A DNA stretch of 60,779 nt, filler included, from Porpidia crustulata (taxonomy: Eukaryota), in the NCBI GenBank assembly GCA_964255105.1. It is 3 parts of 3 records of this genome, joined end to end, with 100 filler letters (N's around TTAATTAATTAA, not from the genome) between each part and the next. Parts side by side here need not be neighbours in the genome. Positions count along the whole stretch, not along the records: positions 1 to 20,205 come from CAXUWE010000124.1; 2 more parts are not named here. One strand, given 5' to 3'. Position numbers and translations under genes: made by a program. The first letter of the stretch is position 1. Every line of letters begins with the position of its first letter. This document shows, in pieces, positions 533 to 5,733 of the stretch. The notes beneath the pieces were generated by a model, which was given only the letters and a program-made list of their open reading frames with translations, ran no database searches and was not told the DNA's origin.

Positions 533-1351
533 TTAATCGCGATGACCGGCGTCTCTCGCAGCCTGTTTCCAGTACATGACTTGACTCTCAAGATCTGCAA
601 CCTGAGCCTCCAGTTCCTCGTGCCTCAAAAGACGCTTTTGTCGAGATTTTCGAGCAGCCAAGGTATTCCGGGCACGCTTGAGTTTAACGGTGTCATTGGG
701 ATCGTCGACAATGATGGCAGGCAAGGGTTTGTCTCGCCGTCTGGAGCTCACACCCGCAGCAGACGCATGACGTCCTTGAGTGGAGCTACGGGCAGATGAC
801 ATGCCAGGAGAGGAAGTGTTGCGAGACATCTGCGTTGGAAAGAAAGTTTCCGAAGTAGATTGCTCGGTCGATGGGGCGATTTTGGCGTCGTTGAAACCAT
901 TGAAATTGTCATTATCATCAAAGAGTGGAAACATGTCGCCGGATTCCGGAACATTGTTGTCGGCAGCAAAGATTGGTGAAGTATCAGTGCTCAAGTCATA
1001 ATGTGGAGACTCCCAGTTGTTCGATTCCGGCGTGGTCAGATTTGTAAACGCAGTCGATACCGGCTCCGAGTGAAGTTGAACGTCCTGTGGAGAGACGCAA
1101 GGCGAGATGGTGCTATCGAAAGAGACCGGCATCGAGAGATCGATTGCGTCTCCGCCGTTGGAAGAAAAACCAAAGTTTGAGAAGAATTCGTCAGAAGCCG
1201 CCATACCCTGATCAACAGAGAAGTCGGCTAATTCGTTGAAAGAATGGTTCTCCTCCATCATGCCTGACGGTGGATTCATTAGCATGGTCGAAATTTGCAA
1301 ACAAGGCCGTTGAAAAAAGCTACCTTCAACTTCCGATGAACGACGGGACAT
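533..1351 (-). CDS. cpc-1: Cross-pathway control bZIP transcription factor (Gcn4/CPC-1/CpcA orthologue), main AUG-initiated ORF, ~252 aa; exons 1351-1324 and 1263-533
   Basis: C-terminal basic region and zipper DTVKLKRARNTLAARKSRQKR...LEAQVADLESQVMYWK; Gcn4-family activation motifs VSPQDV, STAFTNLTTP, TDTSPIF, MFPLF. First in-frame AUG at 1351-1349. Intron 1323-1264 reads GTAGCT...GCTAAT...CAG. Confidence 0.95.
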   Translation of the reverse strand: MSRRSSEVEGSFFQRPCLQISTMLMNPPSGMMEENHSFNELADFSVDQGMAASDEFFSNFGFSSNGGDAIDLSMPVSFDSTISPCVSPQDVQLHSEPVSTAFTNLTTPESNNWESPHYDLSTDTSPIFAADNNVPESGDMFPLFDDNDNFNGFNDAKIAPSTEQSTSETFFPTQMSRNTSSPGMSSARSSTQGRHASAAGVSSRRRDKPLPAIIVDDPNDTVKLKRARNTLAARKSRQKRLLRHEELEAQVADLESQVMYWKQAARDAGHRD

Positions 1352-2020
1352 ATCCCCAGTGCTCTTGCTGGAGAAAAGAGGTACAGGAGGTCGAGTACGA
1401 GGAGACTGCTGCCCCAGGGCCGTTGACGACGACGGAGCCGAGGAAGCGTAAAAACGATGGGATTGACCAGTAGGACTAGACTGTTGCGGAGATGTAGACA
1501 GAGTACCAGATCCGTTACCTTGGATAATATGGCTCACTCGCGGATTCTGGATAGGAGACACAGAAGAAGTTTGTTGCCGAGTAAAGTGATTAGCTTGCGA
1601 TTGTTGACGACCGTTGTAGGCCGGTCCAAGGCGGTAATTAGGGGCTGTACGAGATGTCCCCGGCGCAGGCGTGGTCTGTCTGCGGGAGTCGGGGATGCCG
1701 GTCGTTGTGGTCGGAAAGAGAACGAAGTCGGTCTCCTGGTTTGTTCCAAATTGGTGTGTTGATGGCGTGGGAAGCCTTGGTTGCTGGGGTTGGGTAGGCC
1801 ATGTCTGGTGATGATCCGTGACGAACGACTGTGAGTCGTGAGGCGGAATGGTTGCTGTGAAGTGGGAACTTGGGCTGTTGCGTGAAGCAAAGCTTGGATT
1901 CAGAATATCCTGTGGAGGAGATTCTGCGGTGAAGGGTTGAGTGGGGTTGGTAACGTGCTGTTTGCTGGAACTTATCTTGTCGGTGTGGACGAGACGGTAG
2001 CTTGGAGTGAATACGTAGAT
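1352..2020 (-). other. Stop-free in-frame N-terminal extension of CPC-1 (223 codons), probably translated from non-AUG codons
   Basis: Codon-by-codon reading shows no in-frame stop or AUG between the uORF1 TGA and the main AUG. It encodes QETDFVLFP, NPRVSHIIQGNG, FYASSAPSSSTAL and RPPVPLFS. In-frame near-cognate codons: ATC 2020, ATT 1906, CTG 1903, ATT 1849, ACG 1819. Confidence 0.8.
1638..1802 (-). promoter_or_regulatory. cpc-1 uORF2 (54 aa, MAYPTPATKASHAINTPIWNKPGDRLRSLSDHNDRHPRLPQTDHACAGDISYSP*)
   Basis: The only other AUG between uORF1 and the main AUG. It is out of frame with the main ORF and stops at TAA 1640-1638. Position and size match the inhibitory uORF2 of cpc-1/cpcA. Confidence 0.85.
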
Positions 2021-2035
2021 TCAGAAGGCAGCCAT
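2021..2035 (-). promoter_or_regulatory. cpc-1 uORF1 (ATG GCT GCC TTC TGA, MAAF*)
   Basis: Short AUG-initiated ORF in good context (GTT ATG G), downstream of a pyrimidine tract. It is in the same frame as the main ORF. Matches the short reinitiation-permissive uORF1 of GCN4/cpc-1 leaders. Confidence 0.88.
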
Positions 2036-2090
2036 AACAATGCTATGGATGTCTTCAGGTGTCGTTTGGGTTTGTTTCAGTAGTGTGTAG

Positions 2091-2135
2091 AGTAGAAGAA
2101 AGATGAAGGTGAAGAAGAGAAGAGGAGAGAAGAGT
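2091..2135 (-). promoter_or_regulatory. Pyrimidine-rich CT box, likely cpc-1 core promoter / transcription start region
   Basis: GA-rich run on + (CT-rich on the coding strand) just upstream of uORF1, typical of filamentous-fungal core promoters. Confidence 0.55.
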
Positions 2136-2212: not shown

Positions 2213-2219
2213 TGACTCA
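2213..2219. promoter_or_regulatory. Gcn4/CpcA recognition element TGACTCA (proximal), cpc-1 promoter
   Basis: Exact TGACTCA within ATGACTCAC, ~180 nt upstream of uORF1. Confidence 0.7.
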
Positions 2220-3323: not shown

Positions 3324-5733
3324 TTATGCTGACGCTTCCACAGTCGGTGTCTGTCGCGGATGGCCCGAGCTGATGGCCTCAGCACCAACATCTCCGATTG
3401 ACTTGTCCGCGGCAGGCATGTGGGACTCCGCGGCAGTCTCACCGTTGGTTGGGGCCATCTCGGTCGTAGTGGGAGCATCCTTGCTGATGGGCGTAGCGGT
3501 GTCCGCCGCCTCCTTGGGAAGGGCAGGCACGGGCTCAGCGGCGGGCTTCCCACTCTGAGCACGGCTCGGCTTACGGAAAAGGCCGCCGAGCTTCGAAGAT
3601 GCCGACTTCTTGCCCTCGCCGTCTGTTACTTCGCCATCAGAGATGGCTCCAGATTTCTTTTCCTTTTTGCTACCAAGGGTATTGAAGAATGATTGACGAC
3701 GACCCTTGGTGGCATCCGGGGTAGTGGCGGTGGCAGCTGGAGAGGTTACGGGGGAGGTGACTGCGGCAGCGCTGGTCTCTGCGGGCGCGGCAACTGGAGC
3801 GGCAGGCTCAATGGACGTAGCGGGGATGGTTGACGCTCCACTTTCTGCTTTCTCCTCGGCCTTGATATCTTTCTTCTCCTGGTTCAGATTAGTGAATGGC
3901 ATTGGTAGATTCTCAATTCCCTACTTACCTCCTGCTGCACTTCTTTTTGCTTCATGAAGCTGAAAATGCCACCCTTGGACGCTGAAGGAGAGACATTCTG
4001 TTTCGTCGGAGGCGCCGGGCTTGCCGCTGTGTCAAGCTTACCCATAGCAGCTGCTGGAGCAGTCTCCGTGGGTTGAGGAGCAGCTGCGACTGGATTCTCA
4101 AGCTGGGGCGCATCGGCAGGAATTGCCGTGGACTCCGCATCCTTGGCCGGTACGACTGGCGCTGCTTCCTCCTTGGTAGGGCTCATAGCGTCCTTTTTAC
4201 CGAAGAAACTGCCAAAAATAGAGTTTCTCTTGGATGGCCTTGGGGCAGTCTCCCGAGCAGCGGAGGCCGCAGCTACCGGCGTCTCACCGGGCGCGGGTGC
4301 GACGGTGGGCTCCGCTGCAGCCAGTGGAGCAGTCTCTGCAGCACCAGCAGTCTTGACACCTTCGATAGGCATGACTGGCTCAGCAACAACACGGCTTGCT
4401 ACTGTGTGTCAGTAGCAGTTGGGGAATGGAGGGTTGAGAGGGCTGCCTACCGATACCAGCGGCGTCAAGCTTTCCACTTGTGGGAGTGCCCTCGTGCTTA
4501 AGTTCCTTCTTCTCTTCTTTCTCTGCTTCCTTCACAGCCTTCTTCTCGGCCTTCTCTTCGCTCTTGACCTCTGCCTTCACAGCCTTCTCCTCCGCCTTTT
4601 CTTCCTTTTTCTCTTCCTTCTTGACATCATTTTCTTCCTTCTTCCCCAAAAGAGTTCCAAAAAGGCTGTTGCGCTTGCGAGATTGTGAGCGACTCTTCTT
4701 CTCTGTTGCGGTTGAGGGCGCAGGCTTAGTCTCCTCGGTGGCCACGCCATTTGTCGCCACAGCACCACCGGCGACAGGTTCCTCAGCGAGCTTACCCTCA
4801 GTACTCTTTTCCGGCCTCGACAAAGACCTCGATGCAACAGGGGCTGCAACTAATGCACTAGTTCCACCTATAGGCAATGTAAGCATACCGTTATGAGCCC
4901 ACTGAGATGTAACCCACCAAACTTGTCAAGCGAACTCTTGTAGCCGGCGCTACTTACAACACCCTCACGGGATCCCTTTGCTTCAGTTGCTTGTGTCTCG
5001 ATTGCTGCTATCCATGAATCACGATCTGCGCGGTTGTGGGCTTGAAAAGTGTGCTTGTGACCATGGAGCTTGAACGAGAAGTCGTTGGAATCCAATTTGC
5101 TCACATCAGAGATGTCGGCCTAATAGTGGCATCATCGTTAGTTTGAATCAAGAGGTGGCAGATGGATAGTGGGAAGGACATACCAGATTGATAATACCGG
5201 CTGGATGAAGCTTATCTTCCGCACGCTTGGCGAAAAAGAGCAGACCCTGTCCCGTCTGTGTGGCATGGGCAGCATTGGGATGTGCCAGGTCGGACTTCTC
5301 GTTCGACACGTATCCGAGAAGATGCTTATGCTCTACAGGCTCATCGCTGAACCAAAAAAACTTCTTAGAGAAGATAAGGCTCCTGATTGAATGGTGTCCT
5401 GGTTAGAATTGAGTAATCGTTTTGGGGACGAATTCCTTACTTGACGAGACCTGGGGCTTTGTACCCCAGGATACCCTCAGTCATGGGTTGAGCATCGACT
5501 GCTCCGGTAGTCGTTGCACCAGTTCCCGCTGCCATCGGGGCTTCGCTAATTGCGGCAGTAGTTGGAGTGGTGGTACCGTTAGCGATCTCTGATCGACTCT
5601 CAGGGTTCAACGCACTTGTCTCGGTTGGTCGTACAGGATCTGTCGAGGCCTCAGGGACAGTGGTGGTGATGGGCTCAGTGGCAGCTGGATCAGCCACTGC
5701 AGCCTCCCTAACTGCTGGGTGGAGTTCAGACAT
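3324..5733 (-). CDS. Meu6-like PH-domain protein with long Ala/Pro/Glu/Lys-rich disordered tail, ~711 aa; exons 5733-5441, 5382-5184, 5119-4918, 4867-4451, 4398-3929, 3878-3324
   Basis: Spliced product reads EGILGYKAPGLVKSLIFSKKFFWFSDEP...GLLFFAK...PAGIINLADISDV...FSFKLHGHKHTFQA...RDSWIAAI, a fungal PH_6-type domain. Five GT-AG introns join in frame (2136 nt total). Confidence 0.88.

Follow-up and report, generated by a model that had tools for sequence, protein, structure and literature searches.

How could ribosomes enter a reading frame that stays open through the leader of a cpc-1/GCN4 gene, across an overlapping upstream ORF, when that frame holds no AUG? We address this question in Porpidia crustulata (assembly GCA_964255105.1), using a 60,779-nt stretch of joined records, here called the window, whose positions 1 to 20,205 come from CAXUWE010000124.1. 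We consider it highly probable, from comparison of leader sequences, that this leader has the dual design of Pezizomycotina, in which uORFs would control the standard CPC1 protein and the near-cognate codons NCC5 to NCC8 would give extended isoforms immune to uORF2.

Layout of the cpc-1 leader

The gene lies on the minus strand, as do all features described below, and its uORF1, uORF2 and main frame were read by three-frame translation. The main ORF (533..1351, stop at 535-533) has 272 codons unspliced and 252 codons after subtraction of the putative intron treated in the last section. It ends in a C-terminal bZIP domain (Pfam bZIP_2, E=2e-8), its relatives include named CPC1 proteins, and it is the only full-length cpc-1 copy found in this genome. 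uORF1 (2021..2035) consists of ATG 2035, a total of four codons, and a TGA at 2023-2021, and it is in the main frame. uORF2 (1638..1802) starts at ATG 1802 and has 54 codons and a stop at 1640, in the -1 frame. Between these landmarks, the main frame contains neither a stop nor an AUG from the uORF1 TGA to ATG 1351 (1352..2020, 223 codons), and the conserved coding part of this extension spans 1975-1352 (208 codons). An earlier note on this DNA had described the open frame; translation confirmed it, and every coordinate in the note proved correct. The note's dual-coding run through uORF2 is likewise present, with the block QETDFVLFP starting at 1738 and the other peptide blocks in place. Pfam searches of the extension and of uORF2 matched no family.

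A pyrimidine-rich tract (2090..2135), located about 740-785 nt upstream of the main AUG, is likely the transcription start region; the mapped Neurospora transcript starts 703 nt upstream of its main AUG (PMC5487733). Farther upstream, a GCRE (TGAGTCA) lies at 2213..2219, and a second perfect copy lies at 2713-2707. The GCRE at 2213..2219 is probably a site of CPC1 autoregulation, a function taken from the introduction of PMC5487733. Across the 40 leaders compared below, TGA[CG]TCA occurs within 400 nt upstream of the uORF1 AUG (uAUG1) in 27, and 8 of the 13 leaders that miss it have less than 180 nt of upstream DNA. A CCAAT element near 2250 is, together with the two GCRE copies, compatible with transcriptional autoregulation. 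The upstream neighbour is a multi-exon gene rich in Ala, Pro, Glu and Lys (3324-5733), which ends about 1.2 kb before the cpc-1 leader.

This arrangement has a close precedent. In 100 Pezizomycotina, two uORFs accompany a stop-free extension of at least 160 codons, with three deeply conserved near-cognate codons, NCC6 (CUG), NCC7 (AUU) and NCC8 (ACG) (PMC5487733). The leader resembles that of Neurospora crassa and other Pezizomycotina in its two uORFs, a uORF2 in the -1 frame, an AUG-free extension, NCC6, NCC7 and NCC8, and an upstream GCRE. The uORFs of 5 and 55 codons fall within the published sizes (3-6 and 35-70 codons, stops included), and the locus combines a bZIP orthologue, at least 160 open codons, an open frame more than 100 nt upstream of the uORF2 AUG (uAUG2), and NCC6-8, as the published extensions do. 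The earlier note's identification of a non-AUG N-terminal extension of CPC1 stands, and the codons that it named correspond to the published NCC6-8. Because such extensions are already published and near-universal in Pezizomycotina, one more example adds little. We recognised no Lecanoromycete in the Fig S1 list of PMC5487733.

Other systems are more distant. The leader resembles that of Saccharomyces cerevisiae GCN4 in having a bZIP orthologue preceded by a short permissive uORF and then an inhibitory one, whereas GCN4 is described with four short uORFs and no in-frame extension (PMC5487733). In Agaricomycete cpc-1, a positionally conserved near-cognate codon of variable identity and good context also opens an N-terminal extension, but it lies upstream of uORF1, bypasses all uORFs and adds about 120 aa (PMC5487733). 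Compared with Neurospora, uORF1 is in the main frame instead of frame 2, uAUG1 and NCC8 have a G at -3, and NCC5 is AUA instead of AUU.

Relatives and the leader set

Searched as protein, the 495-codon frame matched 721 of 8,000 scored candidates. The nearest named relatives in this search are lichen-forming fungi (Letharia columbiana, 47%), and the extension aligns with 26 relatives (27 sequences) in invariant or near-invariant blocks. A metagenome scan matched at least 596 stretches, 195 of which were confirmed, and the best 80 of the 195 were used. Sixty-three of the best 80 loci have the proline-rich anchor motif and 52 have both upstream AUGs on the contig; these 52 reduce to 39 distinct leaders, or 40 including the window. 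The 40 leaders are related to each other, include no identified Eurotiomycete DNA, and were placed on a quick version of a tree. Re-examination of the 28 dropped loci found 15 without the leader or its motifs and 3 that stop short, while the remaining 10 gave five further leaders and one apparent repeat of the L064 group.

No in-frame stop occurs between NCC5 and the main AUG in any of the 40 leaders, as the earlier note had expected of relatives. Exceptions were nevertheless met: the frame of L042 is interrupted by a stop 149 nt upstream of uAUG2, which leaves it no usable NCC5, and L013 changes frame within the extension, perhaps through an assembly error. L014 carries two in-frame ATGs inside the extension.

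Coding constraint on the extension

We compared nonsynonymous and synonymous divergence over 1975-1352 (Nei-Gojobori) and obtained dN/dS of 0.29 against L002 (95% bootstrap interval 0.20-0.44) and 0.27 against L006 (0.17-0.40), below one as the earlier note had predicted. Values against five more distant lineages are 0.44-0.53, and the published extension has 0.35, with 0.285 further downstream (PMC5487733). The signal varies along the frame. After uORF2, dN/dS falls to 0.17 (L002) and 0.16 (L006), and from NCC5 to uAUG2 it is 0.39 (0.16-1.07) and 0.51 (0.20-1.39), both intervals including 1; against L020 and L051, the part upstream of uAUG2 gives 1.05 and 0.89. Judged from these alignments, the extension frame is conserved and under purifying selection overall.

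An open frame could also arise as a by-product of C-rich composition, or of constraint on the RNA, without coding for a functional protein. The extension is 36% C, and its synonymous divergence is low (dS 0.40 versus 1.98 in exon 2), so that constraint at the nucleotide level does exist; synonymous-site constraint upstream of uAUG2 was found in the published set as well (PMC5487733). However, when the 669-nt extension was shuffled with dinucleotides preserved, only 163 of 20,000 shuffles (0.8%) were stop-free, and 52 of the 20,000 were also ATG-free. The two other real frames contain 3 and 4 stops across the same interval, and the nearest main-frame stop lies 221 nt before uAUG2. Stops are missing from frame 0 only: after uORF2, the 40 leaders have none in 3845 main-frame codons versus 69 and 58 in the other frames. 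Together with a dN/dS well under 1, these counts make a purely compositional or RNA-level origin extremely improbable.

Contigs from sequencing runs, used here in place of reads, add two comparisons. The DNA-run contigs show zero differences or indels against the leader stretch, and they possibly derive from the source sample, hence are not independent. One RNA-run contig, from a relative of about 97% identity, spans 1458-1971 without gaps; possibly of DNA origin, it stops shortly before reaching 1973. Ten of its 13 assignable differences (15 in all) are synonymous in the main frame. The RNA run contained only 0.13 of the words.

NCC6, NCC7 and NCC8

Three codons in the window correspond to the deeply conserved starts. 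CTG at 1901..1903 is the NCC6 homologue and would add 184 aa; an in-frame ATT1906 precedes it, and CTG or TTG occupies the site in 33 of 40 leaders. ATT at 1847..1849 is the NCC7 homologue (166 aa longer), kept in 37 of 40 leaders, and ACG at 1817..1819 is the NCC8 homologue (156 aa longer), kept in all 40. The earlier note had named ATT1906, CTG1903, ATT1849 and ACG1819 as near-cognates, and all are indeed in frame, upstream of the uORF2 AUG and preceded by a purine at -3.

The 10-nt context of ATT1849 is identical to that of the Glomerella graminicola row in Fig S2 of PMC5487733, and that of ACG1819 to the Claviceps paspali row. The latter context has G, instead of the usual A, at -3 (window 1822), which is shared with L002, L006 and L015, whereas two short RNA-run contigs of other relatives have A. 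The text of PMC5487733 calls A invariant at this position of NCC8, yet its own Fig S2 has G in Claviceps paspali. Contexts were scored with a matrix derived from the sequences around the AUGs in all 40 leaders; the scores are -2.9 for uAUG1, -3.0 for NCC6, 2.5 for NCC7, -1.7 for NCC8, 1.8 for uAUG2 and 0.8 for the main AUG.

ATA1975 and the NCC5 position

The earlier note's start list, right in its CTG1903, ATT1849 and ACG1819, omitted the codon with the best context. An in-frame ATA at 1973..1975, in the context GACAAG and 45 nt after the uORF1 stop, scores 4.4, above every AUG and every other candidate in the leader. It would yield a protein 208 aa longer than the standard one. The note put the isoforms at about 155-220 aa longer; the four codons would give gains of 156, 166, 184 and 208, and a gain of 223 would require initiation at ATC2020, whose context scored lowest of all. 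In Neurospora, AUA ranks midway among near-cognate start codons.

The position is shared by all 40 leaders, each of which has an in-frame ATT or ATA 120-200 nt before uAUG2 (28 ATT, 12 ATA). In 35 leaders it lies at -158 to -194, and in five shorter leaders at -128 to -131. At the best-scoring codon of the site, position -3 holds A in every one of the 40 leaders and position -4 holds C in 39 of them, but the amino acid encoded just before the codon differs from leader to leader (K in 16, T in 13, N in 9, I and S in one each). Nearly fixed bases at -3 and -4 combined with a variable residue are what selection on the initiation context, and not on the peptide, would leave. Picking the best-scoring codon biases the -3 count, and controls were run for this reason. 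Without choosing, A stands at -3 in 56 of 65 in-frame ATH codons of that interval, compared with 7 of 36 out-of-frame ones and 79 of 156 internal Ile codons. When the near-cognate of best context was taken blind to frame, it was in frame in 37 of 40 leaders, against 59% of candidates in frame (p=3e-6, kinship ignored). Four of the five rescued leaders also carry NCC5, L042 being the one without it, which brings the count to 44 of 45 distinct leaders.

The distribution of stops changes at the same codon. In the 45 nt before NCC5, there are 14 in-frame stops in 600 codons, partly the uORF1 stops themselves, which is the background rate; the other frames have 19 and 13. After NCC5, in-frame stops number 0 in 800 codons (17 and 14 in the other frames) and 0 in 1360 (47 and 33).

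Predicted proteins extend the comparison. Among those reaching far enough, 74 of 88 have Ile preceded by K, T, N, R or I at 50-57 residues before the NCC8 threonine, and shifted windows of the same proteins give 1-23 matches. Most of the other 14 look like gene models with invented first exons. The Neurospora primers designed to mutate NCC5 place it after GTCAAC, in the frame V-N-I-K-Q-F-Y-V (PMC5487733 Table S1). P0151 contains this peptide, and P0152 and P0154 (Copromyces) contain a version with K in place of N. The spacing from NCC5 to NCC8 is 51 codons in Sordariaceae-type proteins and 52 in the window. ATA1975 is thus an in-frame AUH between uORF1 and NCC6 with the spacing and context of an NCC5 homologue, the Neurospora side being taken from the primers. 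Counted by eye, the D-T-I of Aspergillus turcosus P0251 falls 51 residues before NCC8, and similar motifs occur in Pleosporales proteins. Fig S2C of PMC5487733, read in the same way, shows for Arthrobotrys an in-frame ATA that follows AACAAA and sits 167 nt upstream of uAUG2; the ATA of Tuber, at -170, has C instead of A at -3.

The published account called NCC1-5 sporadic and confined to close Neurospora relatives, and it noted that in Cordyceps bassiana a stop interrupts the frame 101 nt upstream of uAUG2 (PMC5487733). By the comparisons above, NCC5 appears far more widely conserved than published and would join NCC6-8 as a fourth deeply conserved start, one that sets the limit of the extension; ATA1975 is likely the 5'-most start of the extension in this gene. 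A literature search for NCC5 in cpc-1, covering few subscription papers, returned only PMC5487733. Should NCC5 prove deeply conserved and mark the beginning of the stop-free frame, the N-terminus of the longest CPC1 isoform would be defined and common to these fungi, open to mutation and to N-terminal proteomics, and cpc-1 gene models in many fungi would contain invented first exons.

Such models embody another explanation, that an intron or an alternative transcript start supplies the extension with a normal AUG. Many annotated relatives, for example P0011, do start with an AUG spliced onto the extension. Upstream of the NCC5 residue, however, the N-termini of these models bear no relation to one another, and the RNA-run contig passes through 1458-1971 without a gap or any visible joint. 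Moreover, the sequence from ATG2035 to the TGA offers no GT, which means that splicing could not remove the uORF1 stop. We give this explanation hardly any credence. The earlier note had also held that gene callers miss the extension, which is true of the catalogue protein P0001 (272 aa), starting at 1351, and untrue of many annotated relatives of 440-550 aa, which include it.

RNA structure around NCC5 was also considered. A hairpin at 1995-1968 pairs the NCC5 codon and its context, with the stem kept and the loop differing among the window, L002 and L006. We rejected this hairpin as a general feature, since only 13 of 40 leaders reach p<=0.05 and their stems differ. Folding of the 40 leaders revealed no enhancer structure downstream of NCC5 (mean z -0.1), and folding of 2040-1780 gave z -2.4.

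Routes into the extension frame

The position of uORF1 determines how ribosomes may reach these starts. Here uORF1 shares the main frame, and its stop cuts the extension off from any start farther 5'. Ribosomes must therefore reach every usable start, each located 3' of that stop, by leakage past uAUG1 or by reinitiation. The earlier note suggested a third route, readthrough of the uORF1 TGA, which would give an AUG-started isoform 228 aa longer. uORF1 is in frame in the window and in all 6 lineages of its clade, and the lengths of the two indels that follow uORF1 relative to L002 and L006, 4 nt and 2 nt, add up to a multiple of three. Against this, the part between those indels is read in a shifted frame, which alters the peptide that separates uORF1 from NCC5. 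The uORF1 stops also differ among the six clade members, one of which, L008, carries another in-frame stop beyond uORF1. Over the 40 leaders, uORF1 is in frame 0, 1 and 2 in 18, 9 and 13 cases (chi-square p=0.22). Its frame changes 17 times on the quick tree versus 18.0 times after shuffling, and the sister rows L020 and L051 differ. In-frame uORF1 stops show 9 different tetranucleotides and are mostly TAA or TAG. Neither a conserved leaky stop nor a frame kept on both sides of it, the marks of programmed readthrough, is found. Readthrough is thus very unlikely, and we read the in-frame position of uORF1 as incidental.

A further route would be a shift from the uORF2 frame, which would make extended products dependent on the uORF2 AUG. 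In all 40 leaders uORF2 occupies the -1 frame, and selection is clearest downstream of it (dN/dS 0.16-0.17). Entry by way of uORF2 leaves unexplained a stop-free frame and four conserved near-cognates upstream of uAUG2, and we judge it distinctly unlikely as the source of extended isoforms.

Direct entry at NCC5 to NCC8 remains the preferred reading, and it would operate alongside the control of the standard protein. Translation from AUG 1351 would follow the reinitiation control shown in Neurospora: ribosomes would translate uORF1 and then initiate again, in fed cells at the inhibitory uORF2 and, under eIF2alpha phosphorylation, at the main AUG. A minor fraction of the scanning ribosomes would begin at ATA1975, CTG1903, ATT1849 or ACG1819, pass uORF2 in the main frame, and produce isoforms that are 208, 184, 166 or 156 aa longer. 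In Neurospora, NCC5-8 support initiation in vitro and the footprints seen in vivo are in frame, although in an in vivo reporter these codons yielded less than 1% of main-AUG activity (PMC5487733).

Distance distinguishes the starts. Reinitiation requires a distance over which the ribosome regains initiator tRNA (PMC5972666). In 35 of the 40 leaders, 33-66 nt separate the uORF1 stop from NCC5, and the 45 nt available here is short for acquiring initiator tRNA, so leakage past the weak uORF1 AUG would be the likelier feed. NCC7 and NCC8 would have a reinitiation distance equal to that of the uORF2 AUG. The uORF1 AUG has G at -3 and T at -2 and -1, and its score of -2.9 compares with a mean of 2.5 for uAUG1. 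G at -3 of uAUG1 occurs in 7 of the 8 nearest lineages versus 1 of 32 others, and it would increase leakage in this clade.

Does starvation control the extended isoforms? The earlier note proposed that start-codon stringency (eIF1/eIF5) sets their level, independently of eIF2alpha phosphorylation. All four near-cognate starts precede uORF2, the weak uAUG1 context of the clade would let primary scanning ribosomes reach NCC5, and near-cognate use is set by eIF1 levels (PMC5972666). The Neurospora data point the other way: under 3AT, footprints on the extension increase together with those on the main ORF, the ratio of extension to main-ORF footprints stays at 0.19-0.21 while the main ORF rises relative to uORF2, and the authors read this as induction of the extension by starvation (PMC5487733). 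In addition, near-cognate initiation was found to be mostly eIF2-dependent (PMC8287933), GCN2-type and GCN1-type domains are present in this genome, and the two controls are not mutually exclusive. Stringency independent of eIF2alpha phosphorylation is accordingly a rather unlikely account of the isoforms' regulation. We attach a higher probability, close to but short of an even chance, to a combined proposal: that NCC5 is the ancestral 5'-most start of extended CPC1 in Pezizomycotina, overlooked in 2017, and sets the true N-terminus of the long isoform, and that in this clade the weak uORF1 AUG sends primary scanning ribosomes to it, so that the long isoform forms a larger part of CPC1, and one depending less on starvation, than in Neurospora. 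The role of the extended isoforms was left open in 2017 (PMC5487733), and our literature search, which covered few subscription papers, found no later paper on them.

A probable in-frame intron and a second bZIP locus

A 60-nt stretch shortly after the main AUG (1264..1323), absent from the earlier note, is probably an intron. It is stop-free and in frame, and its donor, branch and acceptor are conserved in L002 and L006 while its middle diverges. The annotated proteins P0011 and P0089 have a gap at its place, 28 of 40 leaders have an intron call of 51-66 nt, and L042 changes frame there. No spliced joint across 1264..1323 was seen in the DNA-run or RNA-run contigs. The frame from the main AUG to the bZIP is open unspliced in 40 of 40 leaders, a count biased by the choice of the best 80 tblastn matches of 195, and some of the leaders lacking an intron call are spliced transcripts. 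Intron retention would add 17-22 aa. A literature search on a stop-free, in-frame intron after the cpc-1 main AUG found nothing.

A second locus of this genome, contig C2268 (identical with L084:1009-2334, minus strand), has a 441-codon frame with a CPC1-like bZIP stretch and a long C-terminal part. We rejected this match as a cpc-1 paralogue with a cpc-1-type leader. Pfam matched no family to the C-terminal part, which we take to resemble a retrotransposon gag. The bZIP stretch is 43% identical over residues 389-492, with a Pfam bZIP match (E=4e-5) below the cut-off, and the frame is possibly a captured bZIP.
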